This document shows positions 53,257-64,000 of a stretch of 64,000 nt of DNA, piece after piece (position 1 is the first letter of the stretch; each line of letters starts with the position of its first letter). The DNA is from an uncultured Acidobacteriota bacterium (GTDB lineage Bacteria; Acidobacteriota; Vicinamibacteria; Vicinamibacterales; CAVVIG01): NCBI GenBank assembly GCA_963761615.1, contig CAVXGU010000004.1, forward strand, positions 543,537 to 607,536, read 5' to 3'. The notes below the pieces were generated by a model. It saw only the letters and a program-made list of their open reading frames with translations, was not told where the DNA came from and searched no databases. Position numbers and translations under genes: made by a program.

Positions 53257-53658
53257 TCATGGGTGCGCTCCGAGCGATAGGACGTACGCCGTGAGATCCC
53301 AGGCGTCCGTCTGGCTCAGGGCCCTCCACGCCGGCATCGGCGTCCCGGCGAGACCCTCGCGGATCGCGAAGAAGACGCGTCGGGGCGACGTGGACGCGCG
53401 CCACGCCGCGTCGGTGAAGTCGCGCGGCGGCTGGCTGAGGCCCTCGCGGCGGACGCCGTGCCCGTCGCCGCGCGCGCCGTGGCAGAGCGCGCAGTGCGCG
53501 AGGAACAGCACGCGGCCCCGCGCCCGGGCTGCCGGCGAGTCCAGCGTGGCGGACGGCACCGCGATCCGGCGGTACGCCGCCGGAAGGTCGCGGTCAGGAC
53601 CGCCGCAGGCCGGGCAGGAGAGGATCATCAGCAGTGCGCTCAGCGCGAGCGGTTTCAT
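53257..53658 (-). CDS. Mono-haem c-type cytochrome lipoprotein
   Basis: Lipobox LMILSC. A single CALCH haem motif, with a distal GTPMPAW Met candidate. Embedded between hupD and hypA; overlaps the hupD 3' end by 65 nt. Confidence 0.7.
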   Translation of the reverse strand: MKPLALSALLMILSCPACGGPDRDLPAAYRRIAVPSATLDSPAARARGRVLFLAHCALCHGARGDGHGVRREGLSQPPRDFTDAAWRASTSPRRVFFAIREGLAGTPMPAWRALSQTDAWDLTAYVLSLGAHP

Positions 53659-54148
53659 CGGTCCTGGGGCGGAAGGGGAATCCCAGCGCTCCCGCCTCCT
53701 CGACGATTCGGTCGACCAGTCCGGGCAGGCCGGGGGCGACCTGCGGCGAGAGGCCGACGGCCAGCTCCATCGACGCGGGCACGAGCCCGACGAGGATCAC
53801 GCGGCGCGGGTACCGGTCCAGCCAGCGGGCCCCGTCCAGCAGATCCGCGACGCCCACCTGGTGCGGCGACAACCGGGTCGCCACGGCCGGCGGCACCTCG
53901 TCTCCCTCCAGGCGGACGAACGTGCCGGGCGGCTCGCCCGTGCGGATCGCGTCGACGAGGATGGCCACGCCGGCATTCTCGAGATAGGGGAGCAGCGCGA
54001 GTCCGAGCGTGCCGCCGTCGAGGACGCGCGTCCCTTCTGGAGCATCGTAGCGCGCATTCAGTTCCGCGACGGCCGCGGCGCCGACGCCATCGTCCTCCAG
54101 CAGGAGGTTGCCGAGGCCCAGCACGAGGAGCCTGGCCGGTTCATTCAT
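53594..54148 (-). CDS. hupD: [NiFe] hydrogenase maturation endopeptidase (HyaD/HupD family)
   Basis: LVLGLGNLLLEDDGVG, LVDA, and SPHQVGVADLL motifs. Confidence 0.88.
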   Translation of the reverse strand: MNEPARLLVLGLGNLLLEDDGVGAAAVAELNARYDAPEGTRVLDGGTLGLALLPYLENAGVAILVDAIRTGEPPGTFVRLEGDEVPPAVATRLSPHQVGVADLLDGARWLDRYPRRVILVGLVPASMELAVGLSPQVAPGLPGLVDRIVEEAGALGFPFRPRTDETARAERTADDPLLPGLRRS

Positions 54149-54866
54149 CGACGTCCCCGTGATGCAGCCACCGGTAGGGGCCGAGGCGGAGCGCGCTCCT
54201 GGGCACCCATTTGTAGCCGCTGAAGATCGAGTCGAGCGTGCCCATCTTCTCGACGATCGCCACCAGCCACGCGCTGTAGACGTGATGCACCACGAAGCCC
54301 AGGAGGAGCCACATCGTCACGTGGTGAATCCAGCGCGCGGTCTGGAAGCCGCCGAAGACCGGCGCGAGCACCGTGAACCACCGGAGCGGCGACGTCACGC
54401 CGGCGTGGGACGCGTACATCGTCAGTCCCGTGAAGATGGCGATCAGGTACAGCACGTACACGAGCGCGTACGTGACGCCTGCCAGCGGGTTGTGGCCGAC
54501 GTAGCTCGGCGGCGTATCCTGGGCGAACAGGTAGAACGAGAGGGTGCCCGGGACGCCGCGGCGCCGCGTGGCGTGCACCGGGACGAACTTGTCCCAGCGC
54601 GCGTACTTGTTGCCCGTGAACATCCAGATGACCCGCATGACGACCGCCGTGACGAACACCGCGGCGGCGTAGAAGTGGATCACCTTGGCCCAGCCCATCA
54701 CGAAGGAGAACCGGGCCTCGCCCGGGACCGTGATGAACGGATGGCCGATGTAGATCCCGGTCGCGGCGAGCACGACGATCGAGAGCGCGATGAGCCAGTG
54801 CGCGATGCGCACGGGCCGCTGCCACACGTAGACGCGGACGATCTCGCCGTCGGATTCGGGCGTCAT
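54141..54866 (-). CDS. hupC: Ni/Fe-hydrogenase b-type cytochrome subunit
   Basis: Last 241 codons of ORF 54141..56414, starting MTPESDGEIVRVYVWQRPVRIAHW. Four TM helices with conserved His residues (IAHW, VIHFY, HNPLAG, WIHHVTMW). The ATG overlaps the hupL stop (ATGA). Confidence 0.85.
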   Translation of the reverse strand: MTPESDGEIVRVYVWQRPVRIAHWLIALSIVVLAATGIYIGHPFITVPGEARFSFVMGWAKVIHFYAAAVFVTAVVMRVIWMFTGNKYARWDKFVPVHATRRRGVPGTLSFYLFAQDTPPSYVGHNPLAGVTYALVYVLYLIAIFTGLTMYASHAGVTSPLRWFTVLAPVFGGFQTARWIHHVTMWLLLGFVVHHVYSAWLVAIVEKMGTLDSIFSGYKWVPRSALRLGPYRWLHHGDVDE

Positions 54867-56569
54867 ACGACCTTCACCCGCGCCAGCTCGCGGCGGCTGG
54901 CGTCCACCACGTGCACGCCGCAGGCCATGCACGGGTCGAAGGAGTGCACGGTGCGCAGGATCTCGACCGGCCGCTGGGGATCGGCCACCGGCGTGCCGAC
55001 GAGCGCCTCCTCGTACGGACCGCGGCGCCCGCCCGCGTCGCGGGGCCCCGCGTTCCACGTGCTCGGCACGACGCACTGGTAGTTCGCGATCGTCCCGTGC
55101 TCGATGTGCACCCAGTGGCTGAGCGCGCCACGGGGCGCCTCGTGCAGCCCGGCGCCGGTCGCGCTGGCGGGCCAGGTCGACGGATCCCACTTGGAGCTGT
55201 CGTGGATGCGGAGCTCCCCGGAGCCCATGTTCGCCGCGAGCCCCTCGACCCAGTCGTCCATCTTCTCGGCCAGGACCTGCGTCTCGATGCCCCGGGCCGC
55301 GACGCGGCCGAGCGTCGAGAAGAGGGCGTCGGCGCCCACGCCGAGCTTCGTCAGGACGCCGTCGACCAGCGTCTTCACGCGGGCGTGTCCGGAGACGTAC
55401 GCGACCAGCATCCGCGCCAGCGGGCCGACCTCCATCGGTTCGTCCCCATAGCGCGGCGCCTTGAGCCACGAGTACTTCTTGTCGGTGTCGAGCCGCTGGT
55501 AGGGCGGCGTCGGCCCCGTGTAGTTGGGCGTGGTCTCGCCGTCGAACGGGTGGAGCGACACGCCGTCGCCGCCCTGGTAGCCGTACCACGAGTGCGTGAT
55601 GTACTCGGCGACCCGGGTCTGGTCGAAGGGCTCGATCTTCGAGATGTCGCGGCCGCGGATGATTCCCTGCGGCAGGAAGAGCGCCGGCGTCGGCGCGTCG
55701 TTCTCCGGGTACTCGCCGAACGCCATGTAGTTCCCGACGCCGCGACCGTACCCTGCCCAGTCCTTGTAGAAGGACGCGACCGCGAGCAGGTCGGGCAGAT
55801 AGACGCGCGTGACGAAGTCGCGCGCCCTGGCCGTCAGCTCCCTGAGGGCCGCGATCGTTCCCGCGTTGAGCGCCGCCTGGCTGTCGGGATCGACCGGCGT
55901 CGCCATGCCGCCGACGAGGAAGCTCTGGAGGTGCGGGTTCTTGCCGCCGAGGATCGCGTGGAGCTTGATGAACTCGCGCTGCCAGTCGAGCGCCTCGAGA
56001 TAGTGCGCGACCGCCATCAGGTTCGCCTCCGGCGGCAGCCGGTACGCGGGGTGGCCCCAGTAGGCGTTCGCGAACGGCCCGAGCTGTCCGCGATCGACGA
56101 ACGCCTTGATCCGGTCGCGTACGCCGGCGAAGTACTTCGCGCCCGAGAGCGGCCAGTCCGAGATCGACTCGGCGAGCGACGAGGTTTTCGCCGGGTCGGC
56201 GGACAGTGCCGAGACGATGTCGACCCAGTCGAGCGCGTGCAGGTGGTAGAAGTGGATGACGTGGTCCTGGATGCACTGCGCACCGATGATCAGGTTCCGC
56301 AGGAGCCGCGCGTTGGGCGGCGGCACGGCGCCGATGGCGTGCTCGACGGCGCGGATGGACGCGATGGCGTGTACCGTCGTGCACACGCCGCAGATCCGCT
56401 GGGTGAACGCCCACGCGTCGCGAGGATCGCGCCCTTTCAGGATCAGCTCGATCCCGCGGAACATCGTCGACGACGACCAGGCGTCGCGGACGACACCGCC
56501 GTCGACCTCGGCCTCGATCCGGAGGTGCCCTTCGATGCGGGTCACCGGGTCCACGACGACGCGGCTCAT
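54863..56569 (-). CDS. hupL: [NiFe] hydrogenase large subunit, group 1 (membrane-bound uptake type)
   Basis: Starts MSRVVVDPVTRIEGHLRIE. N-terminal RICGVCTTVH and C-terminal DPCMACGVH nickel ligands, plus a 15-aa C-terminal extension for proteolytic maturation. Confidence 0.92.
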   Translation of the reverse strand: MSRVVVDPVTRIEGHLRIEAEVDGGVVRDAWSSSTMFRGIELILKGRDPRDAWAFTQRICGVCTTVHAIASIRAVEHAIGAVPPPNARLLRNLIIGAQCIQDHVIHFYHLHALDWVDIVSALSADPAKTSSLAESISDWPLSGAKYFAGVRDRIKAFVDRGQLGPFANAYWGHPAYRLPPEANLMAVAHYLEALDWQREFIKLHAILGGKNPHLQSFLVGGMATPVDPDSQAALNAGTIAALRELTARARDFVTRVYLPDLLAVASFYKDWAGYGRGVGNYMAFGEYPENDAPTPALFLPQGIIRGRDISKIEPFDQTRVAEYITHSWYGYQGGDGVSLHPFDGETTPNYTGPTPPYQRLDTDKKYSWLKAPRYGDEPMEVGPLARMLVAYVSGHARVKTLVDGVLTKLGVGADALFSTLGRVAARGIETQVLAEKMDDWVEGLAANMGSGELRIHDSSKWDPSTWPASATGAGLHEAPRGALSHWVHIEHGTIANYQCVVPSTWNAGPRDAGGRRGPYEEALVGTPVADPQRPVEILRTVHSFDPCMACGVHVVDASRRELARVKVV

Positions 56570-57678
56570 GACGGCTCTCCCTTCGACGGCTTGGGCGGAA
56601 TCGGTTCGGCCTTGTCGCCGACGCGCTTCATGATCTGGATCAGGCCGTGGCCCGCGAACGCGGCGCCGACCGCCGCGACGGCACCGATGCCGATGGTGTC
56701 GATGTTGGACGCGGCGCCGAAGCCCGGGATGCCCGAGAGGTGCTGGTAGAAGGGCGTCATCTTGTCCCAGAAATCCGGCTCCGCGCAGCCGATGCACGGA
56801 TGCCCGCACCCGATCGGCCAGTTGGTCCCGCCGTTCCAGAGGATGTTGGGGCAGTTCTGGAAGGTGACCGGCCCCTTGCAGCCCATCTTGTAGAGGCAGT
56901 AGCCGTCGCGGTGCCCCTGGTCGCCCCACGCCTCGACGTATTGGCCGGCGTCGTAGTGCGCGCGGCGCTCGCAGGCATCGTGAATCGAGGTGCCGTACGC
57001 GAAGAGCGGCCGGCGGAGGTGATCGAGCGCCGGCCACCTCTTGAACGTCAGGTAGTGGACGAGCAGCGCCGTCAGGTTCTCGACGTTGGCCGGGCAGGCC
57101 GACAGGTTGATCAGGTTCTTCACGCCCGGGACGGCGTCGGCCACGCCGAGCGCGCCGGTCGGGTTCGGCGACGCCGCGGGGATGCCGCCGAACGACGCGC
57201 AGGTGCCGATCGCGATCGTCGCCGCGGCGCCGCCGCACACCTCGCGCGCGATGTCGAGCCCCGCCTTCCCGCCGATCGTGCAGTACGCGCCGTTCGCGCC
57301 GGTCGGGATCGAGCCCTCGACGACGGCGATGTAGCCGCCCTTGCGCTGGTCGACGACGTTCGCCAGGTTCTGCTCGGCCTGGACGCCGGCCGCCGCCATG
57401 ATCGTCTCGTGATAGTCGATCGACAGCAGGTCCAGGACCACCTCGGCGGCGGTCGGACGGCTGGCGCGCAGGAAGGACTCGGTGTTGCCCGCGCAGTCCT
57501 GGAACTCGAGCCAGACGAGCACGGGTTTGTCGGTGGAGGTGATGGCGCGCGCGATCTGCGCCGCCACGGAATCGGGCAGGGCCAGCGCCGCCGCCATGGT
57601 GGCGCAGAAGCTCAGGAACTCACGTCGTGACACGCCGCGCCGTTCGAGCTCGGCGGCCAGCCATCCGTGTTCGCTCAT
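56566..57678 (-). CDS. hupS: [NiFe] hydrogenase small subunit with TAT signal and a C-terminal membrane anchor
   Basis: RBS GGAGGAG precedes ATG 57678. N-terminus MSEHGWLAAELERRGVSRREFLSFCATMAAALALP. FeS motifs GTCASFGG, HDACERR, CLYKMGCKGP, GCGHPCIGCAEPDFWD. The proximal motif reads DCAGNTES instead of ECTGC(S/T)ES. Confidence 0.9.
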   Translation of the reverse strand: MSEHGWLAAELERRGVSRREFLSFCATMAAALALPDSVAAQIARAITSTDKPVLVWLEFQDCAGNTESFLRASRPTAAEVVLDLLSIDYHETIMAAAGVQAEQNLANVVDQRKGGYIAVVEGSIPTGANGAYCTIGGKAGLDIAREVCGGAAATIAIGTCASFGGIPAASPNPTGALGVADAVPGVKNLINLSACPANVENLTALLVHYLTFKRWPALDHLRRPLFAYGTSIHDACERRAHYDAGQYVEAWGDQGHRDGYCLYKMGCKGPVTFQNCPNILWNGGTNWPIGCGHPCIGCAEPDFWDKMTPFYQHLSGIPGFGAASNIDTIGIGAVAAVGAAFAGHGLIQIMKRVGDKAEPIPPKPSKGEPS

Positions 57679-57774
57679 CAGCTCCTCCGTCGATCGACCG
57701 GGTCCGTCGATCGCGCGAGGGAAGCGCGCGGCGGCCGCGCCCCTCCGCCTTTCCGGCACCGGTGGCGCGCGGAC

Positions 57775-57923: not shown

Positions 57924-58325
57924 ATGAGACCCGCTTACTACGACGAGTCTCCTCCGCCGGCGCTCCTCGAGGGCGTCGCGCAGTTCAATCGCGGCGAGTA
58001 CTTCGAGCAGCACGAAACCCTGGAGCTGCTCTGGCGTGCCGAGCGGCGCGACGTCCGCTACCTGTATCAGGGGATCCTGCAGATCGGCGTGGCTTTCCAT
58101 CACCTCCGACGGGGGAATCACCACGGGACGGTCTACATGCTGATGCGGGGCGCGCGGTACCTCGCGCCGTTCGCGCCGGCCTGTCAGCGGATCGACGTGG
58201 CGGCGCTCCTCGCCGCGGCGGCGGTGGCCCTCCGGGAGGTCGAGCGTCTGGGCCCGCGGCGCCTCGACGAGTTCGACTGGGACCTGGCGCCGAAGGTGGT
58301 GCTGGTGCCGGATCTCGAGCGCTGA
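57924..58325 (+). CDS. DUF309-domain protein
   Basis: GVAQFNRGEYFEQHETLELLWR...YQGILQIGVAFHHLRRGN matches the remembered DUF309 pattern. Confidence 0.7.
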   Translation: MRPAYYDESPPPALLEGVAQFNRGEYFEQHETLELLWRAERRDVRYLYQGILQIGVAFHHLRRGNHHGTVYMLMRGARYLAPFAPACQRIDVAALLAAAAVALREVERLGPRRLDEFDWDLAPKVVLVPDLER

Positions 58326-58427: not shown

Positions 58428-59012
58428 ATGGCGGCTTCATCCGGACGCACGCTGGTCAGCACCTGGGATCGCCTGGTGGACAGCTCGTGGAACTACCGGA
58501 TCGCGATGGTCGCCGACCTGCTCGCGCCGCTCGGTTGGCTGGCGTTCGCGGTCAGACGCTTCCAGGGCGCGCCGGTCGCGGGCCTGGCGTGGGCGGTCGG
58601 CGGGTTCTTCTGCTTCGGTTTTTTGGAGTACGCCGTGCACCGGTGGGTGCTCCACGGGCCGTTTCCCGTCTTCCGCCGCAGCCATGCGCGCCACCATGCC
58701 CACCCGCTGGCGCTGTACAGCGCCCCGCTCCTGGTGATGATGACGGTCTCGCTGGCCATCTTCGGCGCGCTCGACCTCGCGCTGCCGACCACGGCAGCCG
58801 CCCTGCTGGTCTTTGGCCTCTACGCCGGTTATGACTACTTTGCGGTGCTGCACCACCTGCAGCATCACTCGGTCGACGAGCTCGGACAGATGCCGTACTT
58901 CCACGATCTCGAGCGCTTCCACGACCGCCATCACCACCGGCCGTCCGTCAACTTCGGCATCACCACGACCTTCTGGGACCGCGTGTTCCGCACCTTCGAG
59001 CGCCGCGCCTGA
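58428..59012 (+). CDS. Fatty acid hydroxylase / sterol desaturase-family membrane di-iron protein
   Basis: Histidine boxes HRWVLH, HARHH, HHLQHH and HDRHHH, interspersed with TM helices. Confidence 0.75.
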   Translation: MAASSGRTLVSTWDRLVDSSWNYRIAMVADLLAPLGWLAFAVRRFQGAPVAGLAWAVGGFFCFGFLEYAVHRWVLHGPFPVFRRSHARHHAHPLALYSAPLLVMMTVSLAIFGALDLALPTTAAALLVFGLYAGYDYFAVLHHLQHHSVDELGQMPYFHDLERFHDRHHHRPSVNFGITTTFWDRVFRTFERRA

Positions 59013-59251: not shown

Positions 59252-60655
59252 ATGAAAGGTTCGAAGGGGCCACACTGGCGGGGAGTGTGGCGGGCCGGCC
59301 TCGTCTCGGCGGCCGCACTGTGCATGGCTGCGCCAGCTCTGGCAGCGGGCGCGCCGACAGACGTGACGTTCACGAAGGACGTCGCGCCAATCCTGCAGGC
59401 GAAGTGTCAGGATTGCCACCAGCCAGGATCCATCGCGCCGATGTCGCTCATCACGTACGAAGAAGCCCGTCCATGGGTTCGCGACATCCGCGAGAAGGTG
59501 GCCCAGCGCGAGATGCCACCCTGGCACATCGACAAGTCCGTCGGCATCCAGAAGTTCAAGAACGACTTCTCGCTGAGCGACGAGCAGATCGCGACGATCG
59601 TGAAGTGGGTGGACGAAGGCGCCCCGAAGGGCGACCCCGCCGACATGCCGCCGCCCAAGAAACTGGCGGACCCGAACGAGTGGCGCGGTGTGGTCGACGG
59701 TCTCGGCCAGCCCGACCTCGTCATCACGTCGCCGTCGTGGACCGAGCCGCCGGTGCACCAGGACCTCTGGTGGCGTCCGGAGCAGGCCATTCCCATCACC
59801 GAGCCGCGCTGGGTGCGGGCCGTTGAGATCCGGCCCTCGACGGTTCCGGGCCGCCGGATCATGCACCACATCATCGCCTATCGCGTGCTGAACGCGGACG
59901 AGGCCGATGCCGTGAACACCGGCACGGGCCAGGGCGCGCGCTTCGCGCTGGCCGACAACATCGTCAACGCCCGGCCGCAGCTCATGGAGTGGGCCATCGG
60001 GAAGGGCTACGACATGTACCGCGCGGGCACCGGCAAGCGGATCGAGCCGGGCGAGAAGATCTCGTGGGAGATGCACATCCACGCCGTCGGTGAGCAGATC
60101 ACGTCTGGCGCCCAGATGGCCATCTGGTTCTACCCGAAGGGTCAGGAGCCGACCAAGCAGAGCTACCTCGTCGGCTTCCAGGCCGTCGGCGACCGGACCC
60201 CGGGCAGCTCGGGTCTCGACATCCGGCCGAACAGCATCTCGATGTCGGAAGGCTTCACGACGCTGAACAAGCCGGCCATCCTCGAGAACTTCCAGCCGCA
60301 CATGCACCTGCGCGGGAAGGCGATGGAAATCGAAGCCATCCTGCCGAACGGCAACCACCAGGTGATCAGCTTCGTGCGGAACTTCAACTTCAACTGGATG
60401 ACGAACTACGTCTACGCCGACGATGCGGCGCCGGCGTTCCCGAAGGGGACGATCATCCACGTGACCGCCTGGTACGACAACACGGCGGGCAACCGGAACA
60501 ACCCCGATCCGAACCAGTGGGTCGGCTACGGCGATCGCACGGTGGACGAGATGGGCCACGCCTGGGTGAACGTGACCTACCTCTCCGACCAGGAGTACGC
60601 TGACTGGCTCAAGCAGCACTCCAAGACGCCGGACCGGAGTCAGCAGCAGCAGTAA
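59252..60655 (+). CDS. Secreted cytochrome c fused to a PHM/DBH-like (copper type II monooxygenase-like) domain, paralogue 1
   Basis: RBS AAGGAGG, signal peptide, FTKDVAPILQAKCQDCH...REMPPW. Ordered ligand candidates follow: MHHII (205/206), MHIH (275/277), PHMH (350/352), DEMG (434). Confidence 0.7.
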   Translation: MKGSKGPHWRGVWRAGLVSAAALCMAAPALAAGAPTDVTFTKDVAPILQAKCQDCHQPGSIAPMSLITYEEARPWVRDIREKVAQREMPPWHIDKSVGIQKFKNDFSLSDEQIATIVKWVDEGAPKGDPADMPPPKKLADPNEWRGVVDGLGQPDLVITSPSWTEPPVHQDLWWRPEQAIPITEPRWVRAVEIRPSTVPGRRIMHHIIAYRVLNADEADAVNTGTGQGARFALADNIVNARPQLMEWAIGKGYDMYRAGTGKRIEPGEKISWEMHIHAVGEQITSGAQMAIWFYPKGQEPTKQSYLVGFQAVGDRTPGSSGLDIRPNSISMSEGFTTLNKPAILENFQPHMHLRGKAMEIEAILPNGNHQVISFVRNFNFNWMTNYVYADDAAPAFPKGTIIHVTAWYDNTAGNRNNPDPNQWVGYGDRTVDEMGHAWVNVTYLSDQEYADWLKQHSKTPDRSQQQQ

Positions 60656-60688
60656 CGGCGGCTGTCTGATCGCTGTAGATCAACGACG

Positions 60689-60729
60689 CGAGGCACCCGC
60701 CGAAGGGGGCGGGTGCCTCGCCCTTTCTC
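60689..60729 (+). terminator. Rho-independent terminator
   Basis: 13-bp stem cgaggcacccgcc / ggcgggtgcctcg with loop gaaggg, followed by ccctttctc. Confidence 0.65.
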
Positions 60730-60751: not shown

Positions 60752-61636
60752 ATGAAGTCGGTGATGTGGGTACTCGGTGCAGTAGCGGTTTCGGCGGTGG
60801 CCGTCGCAGTCGCGGGAGCCCAGCAGATCGTGCTCCCCGGCCAGCCGCATGCGGAGTTCGGCGACAGTGTCACGCCCGCCTTCGAGGGTTGGTACGATCT
60901 TCCCGACGGCTCTCACAACTTCCTGTTCGGGTACTACAACCGCAACAGCAAACAGGTCATCGACATTCCGGTCGGACCGAACAACAACGTGCAGCCCGGA
61001 GGGCCCGACCTCGGGCAGCCGACGCATTTCCTGACCGGTCGCAACTGGGGGCTGTTCGCCATCAACGTCCCCAAGACCTACACGCTGCAGGACAAGCCGT
61101 TCGTCTGGTCGATCAATGCCAACGGTCAGCAGGTCCAGATCCCCACGGACTTCAAGCCTGAGTACAACATCGACGTCTTCAGCGACGCGGAGCACAACAC
61201 ACCGCCGGTGATCAAGTTCGATGAGCGCGGGCAGACGGTTCAGGGACCGGTGAACACGTCGTTCGAGCGGACCGCGACGGTCGGCAAGCCGCTGGACCTT
61301 CCGATCTTGGCGAACGACGACAACATCTACACGAGCGGCAGCAACGCGCCGCGCAGCCGCATGGGCGATCCCGTGCGGTTCACGTGGACCCTGTACCGAG
61401 GGCCCGCGGACGTCACCTTCGCCAAGGCGGAGCCGAAGTTCGAGGTGACCTCCGGCGGCGCTGAACTCGGCAAGCCCGTGTCCGGCAAGGGCGATACCAC
61501 GGTCACCTTCTCCGAGGCCGGCGACTACTGGCTCCAGATCGTGGCGAACGACTACTCCGGGCCGGGTGGATCCGGATCCGGGGCGGCCGGGTGCTGCTGG
61601 ACCAACGCGCTCCTCAAGGTCAAAGTCACGCAGTAA
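60752..61636 (+). CDS. Secreted protein of unknown function (two beta-rich domains, C-terminal GCCW motif)
   Basis: Start MKSVMWVLGAVAVSAVAVAVAGAQQ. Balanced, aromatic-rich composition. Ends ...GSGSGAAGCCWTNALLKVKVTQ. Confidence 0.65.
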   Translation: MKSVMWVLGAVAVSAVAVAVAGAQQIVLPGQPHAEFGDSVTPAFEGWYDLPDGSHNFLFGYYNRNSKQVIDIPVGPNNNVQPGGPDLGQPTHFLTGRNWGLFAINVPKTYTLQDKPFVWSINANGQQVQIPTDFKPEYNIDVFSDAEHNTPPVIKFDERGQTVQGPVNTSFERTATVGKPLDLPILANDDNIYTSGSNAPRSRMGDPVRFTWTLYRGPADVTFAKAEPKFEVTSGGAELGKPVSGKGDTTVTFSEAGDYWLQIVANDYSGPGGSGSGAAGCCWTNALLKVKVTQ

Positions 61637-61792: not shown

Positions 61793-61869
61793 GAGAGCCC
61801 AGAGCCCAGAGCCCAGAGCCCAGAGCCCAGAGCCCAGAGCCCAGAGCCCAGAGCCCAGAGCCCAGAGCC
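61793..61869 (+). repeat. Heptamer microsatellite, 11 units (GAGAGCC then 10x CAGAGCC)
   Basis: Counted by hand. Ends 1 nt before the RBS gaaggag of the histidine-brace gene. Confidence 0.95.
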
Positions 61870-61882
61870 CGAAGGAGCCGTG

Positions 61883-62497
61883 ATGCAGCCGTTTGCCCGT
61901 CTGTCGCTGGCCGCCCTCGTCGCGGTCGCCCTGCCTGCCGTGGTGAGTGCCCACTTCGTCCTCGTGCAGCCGGCCCCGACGCTGCAGCAGGACCGTCTCG
62001 GCAATCCCCAGAAGCTCGGACCGTGCGGCGGGACGTCCGCGGACGCGGGCACGCCGTCCGGCGCCGTCACGCCGGTCCAGGGCGGCACCACGCTGCACAT
62101 CGAAGTGCAGGAGACCGTCTTTCACCCGGGGCACTACCGCGTGGCGCTCGCCGTCAACGCCCTCAGCGAACTGCCGGCCGAGCCGGACGTCACCACGGAG
62201 GCCACGGCGAACGGCCCACGGTCGGTGTCGGCCGTGATCGACCAGGATCCGAAGCCGCCGGTGCTCGCCGATGGCGTGTTCGTCCACACCGACCGCGCCG
62301 CGATTGCCGCGCCGTTCGAGGCCGACGTGTCCGTGCCGAACATCACCTGCCCGAGGTGCACGCTGCAGGTCATCGAGTTCATGGCGCAGCACGGCTACAA
62401 CGCCGACGGCGGCTACTTCTACCACCACTGCGCCGCGCTCGCGATCACGGCGGATCCGTCCAAGCCGATCGACACGCGCTGGCCCTCCGCGCGGTAG
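61883..62497 (+). CDS. Secreted histidine-brace-type copper protein (LPMO-like)
   Basis: The signal peptide MQPFARLSLAALVAVALPAVVSA is followed directly by HFVLVQP, so mature residue 1 would be His. Second His candidate in FHPGHYRV, aromatic YFYHH, and four Cys. GTG 61880 is an alternative start. Confidence 0.65.
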   Translation: MQPFARLSLAALVAVALPAVVSAHFVLVQPAPTLQQDRLGNPQKLGPCGGTSADAGTPSGAVTPVQGGTTLHIEVQETVFHPGHYRVALAVNALSELPAEPDVTTEATANGPRSVSAVIDQDPKPPVLADGVFVHTDRAAIAAPFEADVSVPNITCPRCTLQVIEFMAQHGYNADGGYFYHHCAALAITADPSKPIDTRWPSAR

Positions 62498-62660: not shown

Positions 62661-62781
62661 GCACGCCTCATGCGTACCATTGGAGCACCAATGATTGGAG
62701 CACAAATGGCTCAGTCTGTCTGGTGTGAGCGCGCGACGTGGCGATGGTGCGCGATGGCGAATGACCGGCAAGGAGGGTGAC

Positions 62782-64000
62782 ATGGAAGGTTCGAAGCGAC
62801 CACGCTGGCGGGCCGTGCGGCGTGCCGGCCTCGTGTCGGCAGCTGCGCTGTGCATGGCCGCGCCAGCCCTGGCGGCGGGTGCGCCGCCGACCGTGACGTT
62901 CACCAAGGACGTCGCGCCGATCCTGCAGGCGAAGTGTCAGGACTGCCATCAGCCCGGCTCGATCGCGCCGATGTCGCTCATGACCTACGAGGAGACGCGC
63001 CCGTGGGTGCGTGACATCCGCGAGCGGGTCGCCAACCGCGAGATGCCGCCGTGGCACATCGACAAGTCGGTGGGCATCCAGAAGTTCAAGAACGACTTCT
63101 CGCTGAGCGACGAGCAGGTCGCGACGATCGTCAAGTGGGTGGACGAGGGCGCGCCGAAGGGTGACCCGGCCGACATGCCGCCGCCCAAGAAGATGCCGGA
63201 TCCGAACCAGTGGAAGGGCGTGCTCGACGGGCTCGGCCAGCCGGATCTCGTGATCACGTCGCCGATGTGGACGGAGCCGCCGGTGCACCAGGACGTCTGG
63301 TGGCGTCCGGAGCAGCCGATTCCGATCACCGAGCCGCGCTGGGTGCGGGCCGTCGAGATTCGACCCTCGACGATTCCGGGCCGCCGGATCATGCACCACA
63401 TCATCGCCCACCGCATCCTGAACGCGGACGAGGCCGACCAGGTCAACACCGGCACGGGGTCGCGCAACATCGCGCTGGTGGACACCCTGGTCAACTCGCG
63501 CCCGCAGTTGATGGAGTGGGCCATCGGCAAGAGCTACGACCTGTATCGCGCGGGCACCGGCAAGCGGATCGAGCCGGGCGAGAAGATCTCGTGGGAGATG
63601 CACATCCACGCCGTCGGCGAGCAGATTACCTCCGGCGCGCAGATCGCGATCTGGTTCTATCCGAAGGGCCAGGAGCCGACGAAGGAGACCTATCTCGTCG
63701 GATTCTCGGCGGTCGGCGACCACACCCAGGGCAGCTCGGGTCTCGACATCCGGCCGAACAGCATCTCGATGTCGGAAGGCTTCACCACGCTGCGGAAGAA
63801 CGCGATCCTCGAGAACTTCCAGCCGCACATGCACCTGCGCGGGAAGGCGATGGAAATCGAAGCCATCCTGCCGAACGGCAACCACCAGGTGATCAGCTTC
63901 GTGCGGAACTTCAACTTCAACTGGATGACGAACTACGTCTACGCCGACGATGCGGCGCCGGCGTTCCCGAAGGGGACGATCATCCACGTGATTGCCTGGT
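62782..64000 (+). CDS. Cytochrome c::PHM/DBH-like fusion, paralogue 2 (3' end beyond the window; not in the supplied ORF track)
   Basis: RBS AAGGAGG precedes ATG 62782. Hand translation gives MEGSKRPRWRAVRRAGLVSAAALCMAAPALAAGAPPTVTFTKDVAPILQAKCQDCHQPGSIAPMSLMTYEE... colinear with paralogue 1. Open to base 64000. Confidence 0.75.
   Translation, partial: MEGSKRPRWRAVRRAGLVSAAALCMAAPALAAGAPPTVTFTKDVAPILQAKCQDCHQPGSIAPMSLMTYEETRPWVRDIRERVANREMPPWHIDKSVGIQKFKNDFSLSDEQVATIVKWVDEGAPKGDPADMPPPKKMPDPNQWKGVLDGLGQPDLVITSPMWTEPPVHQDVWWRPEQPIPITEPRWVRAVEIRPSTIPGRRIMHHIIAHRILNADEADQVNTGTGSRNIALVDTLVNSRPQLMEWAIGKSYDLYRAGTGKRIEPGEKISWEMHIHAVGEQITSGAQIAIWFYPKGQEPTKETYLVGFSAVGDHTQGSSGLDIRPNSISMSEGFTTLRKNAILENFQPHMHLRGKAMEIEAILPNGNHQVISFVRNFNFNWMTNYVYADDAAPAFPKGTIIHVIAW

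Follow-up and report, generated by a model that had tools for sequence, protein, structure and literature searches.

A predicted fusion of a c-type cytochrome with a PHM/DBH-type copper monooxygenase core, and its co-encoded partner, in an uncultured Acidobacteriota bacterium

The copper monooxygenases closest to the protein described here are peptidylglycine alpha-hydroxylating monooxygenase (PHM, the catalytic core of PAM; PDB 1PHM/1OPM) and dopamine beta-hydroxylase (DBH; PDB 4ZEL), and with the latter tyramine beta-monooxygenase and MOXD1 are grouped. In animals, these two-copper enzymes serve the synthesis of peptide hormones and noradrenaline. To our knowledge, the characterised members of this class are all eukaryotic and all ascorbate-dependent. 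The supply of copper oxygenases by haem domains is known from the cytochrome domain of cellobiose dehydrogenase, which feeds lytic polysaccharide monooxygenases (LPMOs), and from cytochrome b561-DOMON (CYBDOM) proteins. In a 2024 review on copper monooxygenases, PHM and DβH are the sole enzymes listed for the class (PMC11234856), and the CuH site of PHM is regarded as an electron relay to the CuM site ~11 Å away (PMC11234856). Here we describe a gene at positions 59252-60655, forward strand, of a window of 64,000 nucleotides (the whole stretch of DNA that was analysed; contig CAVXGU010000004.1, positions 543,537 to 607,536) from an uncultured Acidobacteriota bacterium. Its product of 467 amino acids is predicted to join a c-type cytochrome to a copper core of the PHM/DBH type.

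Window numbering is used throughout, and residues are counted from the Met at 59252. The open reading frame is real and translates to 467 amino acids, and the residue positions that an earlier note on this DNA had listed for it are correct: CQDCH at 52-56, REMPPW at 86-91 (with M88), HH at 205-206, HIH at 275-277, HMH at 350-352 and M434. Since none of these residues varies in 47 homologues (63-89% identity) and, apart from H277, they are kept in divergent representatives, the motif set is not a chance pattern. A Shine-Dalgarno sequence, AAGGAGG, lies 6 nt 5' of the ATG. The N-terminus, read from the sequence by eye, leads from a basic N-region via the hydrophobic stretch AGLVSAAALCMAAP to an A-L-A cleavage motif, and export of the product via a Sec-type signal peptide is predicted. 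In the AlphaFold2 model (predicted local distance difference test, pLDDT, of 71; predicted template modelling score, pTM, of 0.71) a helical N-terminal domain is followed by two β-sandwich lobes. Altogether, a periplasmic three-module architecture comprising cytochrome c, proline-rich linker, CuH lobe and CuM lobe is largely supported. The gene and its N-terminal part comprise the following features.

59252-60655, forward strand: fusion gene of cytochrome c and PHM/DBH-like copper monooxygenase, copy 1 (open reading frame and translation)
59252-59344, forward strand: predicted Sec signal peptide, about residues 1-31 (sequence reading; pLDDT below 50 at residues 1-34)
59360-59626, forward strand: mono-haem cytochrome c domain, about residues 37-125, with helices at 40-55, 69-84 and 110-121 (Pfam, profile and model)
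59405-59419, forward strand: CQDCH haem c attachment motif with C52, C55 and H56
59513-59515, forward strand: M88 in REMPPW, candidate distal haem ligand

For the comparison with known structures two profiles were used, A1 from close homologues (≥63% identity) and A2 from 51 divergent full-length members (30-53% identity to the query). Searched against the PDB, A1 did not reach PHM, while A2 matched rat PHM with E=2.6e-11 and human DBH with E=2.7e-11. When the members of A2 were scanned singly against Pfam, Cu2_monoox_C was found in 23/51 (E≤0.01, best 6e-7) and Cu2_monooxygen in 6/51, and two longer relatives exceeded the PF03712 gathering cut-off of 23 (P0251 with 27.7 bits and P0266 with 25.8 bits). 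A Foldseek search of the AlphaFold model against the PDB returned PHM or DBH for all of the best 31 matches, with E-values from 4e-12 (PHM) to 3e-9, and the first other match followed at E=3e-6. Both Foldseek and the model thus display the two-lobe β-sandwich fold that PHM/DBH-class catalytic cores have in common, while the structural alignment with PHM gives an identity of only 12-14%. An NCBIfam scan of the 467-residue protein gave no match, and exact-sequence look-up of this protein and of the relative P0002 found nothing. The PHM/DBH-like core proposed in the earlier note is borne out by three independent lines, the A2 profile, the Foldseek matches and the Pfam matches in relatives, and sequence and model together support its description as a two-lobe copper monooxygenase core of this type.

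In order to compare the copper sites, the protein and fragments of PHM and DBH were aligned to the A2 hidden Markov model. The numbering of the CuH ligands was checked for PHM against PMC6123673 and that of the DBH ligands against PMC4846438; for DBH, the chain index in the alignment plus 39 gives the published ligand numbers. Conservation was counted in 150 representatives of 50%-identity clusters, which show 30-71% identity to the query over the matched stretches and include many fragments, so that each denominator is the number of representatives covering the respective column. The two lobes and the ligand positions are as follows.

59699-60151, forward strand: N-terminal β-sandwich lobe, equivalent of the CuH domain, about residues 150-300 (model; PHM alignment from about residue 62)
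59864-59869, forward strand: codons of H205 and H206, CuH ligand positions, aligned in A2 to PHM H107 and H108 and to DBH His262 and His263, respectively
60074-60076, forward strand: codon of H275, third CuH ligand position, aligned to PHM H172 and DBH His333
60152-60625, forward strand: C-terminal β-sandwich lobe, equivalent of the CuM domain, about residues 301-458 (model, alignment and Cu2_monoox_C in relatives)
60299-60307, forward strand: codons of H350-M-H352, CuM ligand positions, with H350 aligned to PHM H242 and DBH His412 and H352 to PHM H244 and DBH His414
60551-60553, forward strand: codon of M434 in the DEM motif, CuM methionine position, aligned to PHM M314 (the corresponding DBH region with M487 lies outside the alignment coverage)

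The alignment to the PHM and DBH cores had been set beforehand as the test, and it places all six residues on copper ligands and not outside the copper sites. Nor do these residues vary among homologues, each being kept in at least 97% of the representatives: H205 in 125/128, H206 in 124/128, H275 in 120/122, H350 in 118/118, H352 in 116/116 and M434 in 100/101. The three His of a CuH site and the two His and one Met of a CuM site, as they characterise the class, are therefore both present in the alignment. The D-E-M motif and a G after HxHx are likewise common to PHM and the protein described here, and, as in DBH, the third CuH motif takes the form HxH (HYH in DBH, HIH here). The earlier note had listed HIH as a whole. 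While the assignment of H205, H206 and H275 to CuH and of H350, H352 and M434 to CuM stands, H277 does not belong among the ligands, since it aligns to the non-ligand Gly174 of PHM (a His in DBH) and is kept in only 70/122 representatives. Judged from the sequence, copper would be bound at both sites.

On the substrate side the agreement with PHM ends. R240, N316 and Y318 of PHM, which we take to be the residues that bind the C-terminal carboxylate of the peptide substrate, correspond in the alignment to Q348, H436 and W438, at positions that are variable across the family. Since the carboxylate-binding residues are replaced, peptidylglycine is not expected to be the substrate, and the protein should not be classed as a peptidylglycine hydroxylase on the basis of its sequence. 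Near the CuM motifs other residues are conserved that are specific for the family, namely R354 (96/116), W382 (108/111), Y386 (105/111), D409 (104/108) and N410 (105/108). R354 beside CuM, together with W382, Y386, D409 and N410, probably shapes a different pocket, which would make this a PHM-type core acting on a substrate other than that of PHM. A further difference concerns the disulfides, in which PHM is rich. The 467-residue protein contains no Cys residues other than C52 and C55 of the haem motif and C24, which belongs to the signal peptide, and consequently none of the PHM disulfides can be present. Compared to PHM, the protein furthermore carries a fused cytochrome c at its N-terminal end, preceded by a signal peptide for export to the periplasm of a bacterium, it is encoded together with a partner, and ascorbate is presumably not its reductant. 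With DBH it shares an additional N-terminal domain ahead of the CuH lobe, but in DBH this is a DOMON domain, accompanied by a C-terminal dimerisation domain, whereas here it is a c-type cytochrome in a bacterial host.

A CxxCH motif in an exported protein, as it marks c-type cytochromes, is found in all members that can be judged: C52, C55 and H56 are present in 119/119 representatives covering the N-terminus. This indicates that the cytochrome c is a constant part of the family's architecture rather than a sporadic addition. M88 of MPPW is equally invariant (124/124) and is a candidate for the distal haem ligand. The Pfam cytochrome c matches of the protein itself all lie below gathering, the best being Cytochrome_CBB3 with 18.7 bits compared to a cut-off of 27, accompanied by weak sub-threshold matches to PccH and Haem_bd; among the 51 divergent relatives, 33 match Cytochrome_CBB3 at E≤0.01 (best 2.4e-6). 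In the PDB, the N-terminal motif of the A2 profile matched the C-terminal cytochrome c region of hydrazine synthase α (5C2V, E=1.4e-4) and the cytochrome c 4RLR (E=3.7e-3), which we take to be PccH in view of the Pfam PF22297 match. Both share the haem-motif region 'D(V/I)xPIL...CxxCH' with the family, but only ~25-30 residues align and the functional context differs.

Both the invariant fusion to cytochrome c and the location in the periplasm of a bacterium speak for a donor other than ascorbate, and the ascorbate-independent electron supply via the cytochrome, which the earlier note had proposed, is a reasonable inference from the sequence. Since the domain order of cytochrome, CuH lobe and CuM lobe matches the electron flow in PHM (PMC11234856), a path from haem via CuH to CuM in place of ascorbate would fit, with electrons presumably moving from haem to copper. 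In concept, this resembles cellobiose dehydrogenase/LPMO and CYBDOM, where a haem module gives single electrons to a copper oxygenase and replaces a small-molecule reductant. The folds and the haem type (b versus c) are, however, unrelated, and the haem module is here covalently fused to a PHM-type core, so that the comparison is to be read as an analogy only.

Directly downstream of the enzyme gene, separated by a gap of 96 nt, lies a second gene of the same strand.

60752-61636, forward strand: partner gene, encoding a secreted two-β-sandwich protein of 294 amino acids with the motifs FEGW, FGYYNRN, GQPTHF and CCW (adjacency, alignment and model)
60688-60721, forward strand: 14-bp perfect GC-rich hairpin in the gap between enzyme and partner gene (-36.1 kcal/mol, z=-5.35, 0/200 shuffles as stable)

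In a locus survey with the A1 profile and one genome per species, 567 relatives were obtained, of which the best 80 loci were examined together with L001. A partner homologue was found at most 400 bp from the enzyme gene and on the same strand in 77/81 of these loci. Of the four loci without it, two break off directly behind the enzyme gene, leaving 77/79 informative loci with an adjacent partner. In L082 the partner lies upstream of a 47%-identical enzyme, in swapped order, and in L048 it stands beside a 42%-identical paralogue, while L010, L027, L040 and L074 hold two enzyme genes per partner gene. In the 90%-clustered database the partner family is represented by at least 3,832 proteins, every one of which is annotated as "hypothetical" and lacks Pfam domains. 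In the protein, a signal peptide precedes two β-sandwich domains (pLDDT of the model 73). Its invariant motifs are FEGW, YxNRN, GQPTHF, DD and, close to the C-terminus, a vicinal CCW with the only two Cys of the partner. Diverged homologues retain FEGW, FGYxNRN, GQPT[H/Y]F and CCWTN, the His being Tyr in one of them. The invariant loop shows low model confidence when the partner is modelled alone. Foldseek against the PDB gave generic Ig-like matches only, the profile search of the PDB found no relative, and a Pfam scan of the members one by one gave only a weak PKD signal.

It is very likely that the partner works with the enzyme, either as a substrate-binding or substrate-presenting subunit or as an assembly factor. 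Other possibilities are that it delivers copper or is itself acted upon as the substrate. A role as copper chaperone was considered as a possibility on account of one His and the vicinal Cys, this His being Tyr in one diverged homologue. A weak CCCUUUCUC tract comes after the hairpin, which may set the expression ratio of enzyme to partner, either by acting as a partial terminator or by affecting mRNA stability. A promoter/terminator consensus scan was uninformative.

On balance, we judge it probable that the gene encodes a periplasmic hydroxylase of the PHM/DBH type that is fed by its cytochrome c and acts, together with the partner, on a substrate other than peptidylglycine. After Sec export and haem attachment, the N-terminal domain would form a periplasmic mono-haem c-type cytochrome with His56/Met88 ligation, tethered by the proline-rich linker to the PHM/DBH-type core. 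Electrons from the respiratory chain would enter at the haem, reduce CuH in the stead of ascorbate and pass from CuH to CuM, where O2 would be activated. A C-H bond of the bound substrate would then be hydroxylated at CuM by a mechanism after that of PHM/DBH. This substrate would be other than a glycine-extended peptide and would sit in the differing pocket, and the co-encoded periplasmic β-sandwich partner of 294 amino acids would cooperate as a substrate-binding or substrate-presenting subunit or as an assembly factor.

The wider neighbourhood contains the following features.

62782-64000, forward strand: enzyme gene copy 2, truncated by the window end, 406 codons visible (89% amino acid and 88.8% nucleotide identity to copy 1)
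61880-62497, forward strand: LPMO-like gene between the two copies, encoding a secreted protein of 205 amino acids (NCBIfam NF043005, 110 bits compared to a cut-off of 75)
61794-61870: tandem repeat (AGAGCCC)×11 with a 7-bp unit and 100% matches, directly upstream of the start at 61880
53597-57759, reverse strand: complete [NiFe]-hydrogenase cluster of four genes
56566-57759, reverse strand: hydrogenase small subunit (Oxidored_q6 and NiFe_hyd_SSU_C)
~54866-56560, reverse strand: hydrogenase large subunit (NiFeSe_Hases, E=7e-234)
~54144-54860, reverse strand: hydrogenase cytochrome b subunit (Ni_hydr_CYTB)
53597-54148, reverse strand: HycI-type maturation protease
57924-58325, forward strand: DUF309 gene, upstream of the enzyme gene
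58428-59012, forward strand: gene directly 5' of the enzyme gene, encoding a di-iron membrane protein of the FA_hydroxylase family

Copy 2 showed the same motifs and the same weak Pfam matches as copy 1, and the DNA similarity of the two starts ~20 bp 5' of the start codons. Upstream of copy 2, a 15-bp direct repeat (×2) is present at 62679-62708. NF043005 stands for the 'SCE4755 family polysaccharide monooxygenase-like protein', and in the product of 61880-62497 the first residue past the predicted signal cleavage is a His (…VVSA|HFVL…), as would be expected of a histidine-brace copper site. The repeat in front of this gene could render its promoter or 5' untranslated region phase-variable or prone to slippage. 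Functional links of the enzyme to these neighbours were considered and rejected: the hydrogenase cluster is not a conserved neighbour, the order with DUF309 and FA_hydroxylase is limited to L001 and L003, which are the closest orthologous loci, and an LPMO-like gene lies near the enzyme in 0/81 loci. No other neighbour recurred in more than ~12 of the 81 loci. In L082 (6524-11053), a metagenomic contig, enzyme and partner are followed by two genes for pyrroloquinoline quinone (PQQ)-dependent dehydrogenases, one of which comprises a cytochrome c domain and is quinohaemoprotein-like; though a single case, it may point to an oxidation pathway in the periplasm.

Several observations weigh against the interpretation as a PHM/DBH-type hydroxylase working with the partner. 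The Pfam scan of the 467-residue protein gave no PF01082 or PF03712 match even at E≤1, let alone at the gathering thresholds, and the homology of the copper core is therefore drawn from relatives and from the profile and not from a curated model. The Foldseek superpositions on PHM/DBH reached a template modelling score of only 0.5-0.6 on the target and a root-mean-square deviation of 6-9 Å, which is consistent with a common fold in a differing inter-lobe pose. The overall confidence of the model at the pLDDT and pTM given above is moderate, with most core strands at 80-95. The locus L085 contains a 35%-identical enzyme without a partner. Finally, redoxin-type AhpC/TSA fusions occur in the distant relatives P0133, P0220 and P0251, hinting at peroxide chemistry, which would not be expected of a plain O2 monooxygenase.

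The last point leads to the alternative that survives best, although we regard it as unlikely: the copper core could be a peroxygenase with H2O2 as co-substrate, as debated for LPMOs, or an oxidase that converts O2 to H2O2 or water with electrons from the cytochrome c, rather than chiefly an O2-dependent hydroxylase of the classical kind. AhpC/TSA-redoxin or thioredoxin-like domains are found N-terminal in some distant members of up to 1,251 amino acids, others contain EF-hand motifs (P0133, P0220, P0251 and P0143 among these extended forms), and such extensions in other branches are hints of a link to peroxide/thiol redox chemistry or calcium. In P0133, P0220 and P0251 the redoxin is fused to the cytochrome c and PHM-like unit, the gene of the LPMO-like copper protein sits between both enzyme copies, and the debate between monooxygenase and peroxygenase is open for copper enzymes (2024 review, PMC11234856). 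Yet the full set of CuH and CuM ligands including the Met is conserved, which in PHM/DBH is tied to tightly coupled O2 hydroxylation, the redoxin fusions are confined to a minority of distant members, and the LPMO-like neighbour is conserved in none of the loci surveyed.

Rather improbable is a non-catalytic protein for periplasmic electron transfer or copper handling (storage, delivery or redox relay) that has kept the PHM fold and the metal sites. This would agree with the complete loss of the PHM substrate-binding residues, with the many paralogues per genome and with the finding that, beyond the partner, no metabolic genes are consistently linked. Plain copper binding, however, needs neither a fused haem nor both lobes, and the strict retention of two asymmetric copper sites including the CuM Met at only ~30% identity is the signature of a catalytic pair.

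We consider it quite improbable that the enzyme is a maturase, which hydroxylates or cross-links a residue of the partner in the GQPTHF loop or in CCW. Here, the nearly constant adjacency of both genes, the action of PHM on peptide substrates, and the invariant vicinal Cys-Cys-Trp of the partner together with its invariant loop of low predicted confidence alone would find an explanation, but adjacency suits a subunit or a chaperone equally, four loci hold two enzyme genes per partner, and the His of the loop is Tyr in one diverged homologue. The extension of this idea, in which a periplasmic system powered by the respiratory chain makes a hitherto unknown protein-derived cofactor on the Cys-Cys-Trp or the GQPTHF loop and the partner is the functional end product, is the least credible of the explanations considered.

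The family to which the fusion protein belongs is very large. The 90%-clustered database holds at least 7995 homologues (7,995/8,000 scored candidates matched), and among the representatives of 50%-identity clusters, which were searched exhaustively, 14,869 matched at E≤1e-3, of which 1,673 reached E≤1e-30. The members are annotated only as "hypothetical" or "cytochrome c" and stem mostly from Acidobacteriota. The best 80 loci likewise belong nearly all to metagenome-assembled genomes (MAGs) of Acidobacteriota (Vicinamibacterales, Bryobacteraceae and Terriglobia), the closest being a Vicinamibacterales MAG with 84% identity, and several of the genomes are represented by three or four paralogous loci each.

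In the full-text literature, with a coverage that lacks most subscription-journal papers, no bacterial member of the PHM/DBH class and no cytochrome c fusion of it was described. Specialists who browse domain architectures may know such proteins already, as databases flag Cu2_monoox_C in some bacterial relatives. Fold, ligand set and general chemistry are those of a known class, and the finding is in this respect not categorically new. What is new is the occurrence in bacteria, the obligatory cytochrome c fusion, the loss of the disulfides and of the PHM substrate residues, the linked partner family and the very large scale.

If the protein is a copper enzyme, the PHM/DBH class would be extended to bacteria as a major periplasmic group in soil, often with several paralogues per acidobacterial genome. 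The covalent haem would provide a built-in and spectroscopically visible electron entry point. Accordingly, the crossing of electrons from CuH to CuM and the closure of the enzyme in turnover, both long debated, could become directly measurable. The questions of the substrate and of the partner family bear on the carbon turnover by Acidobacteriota.

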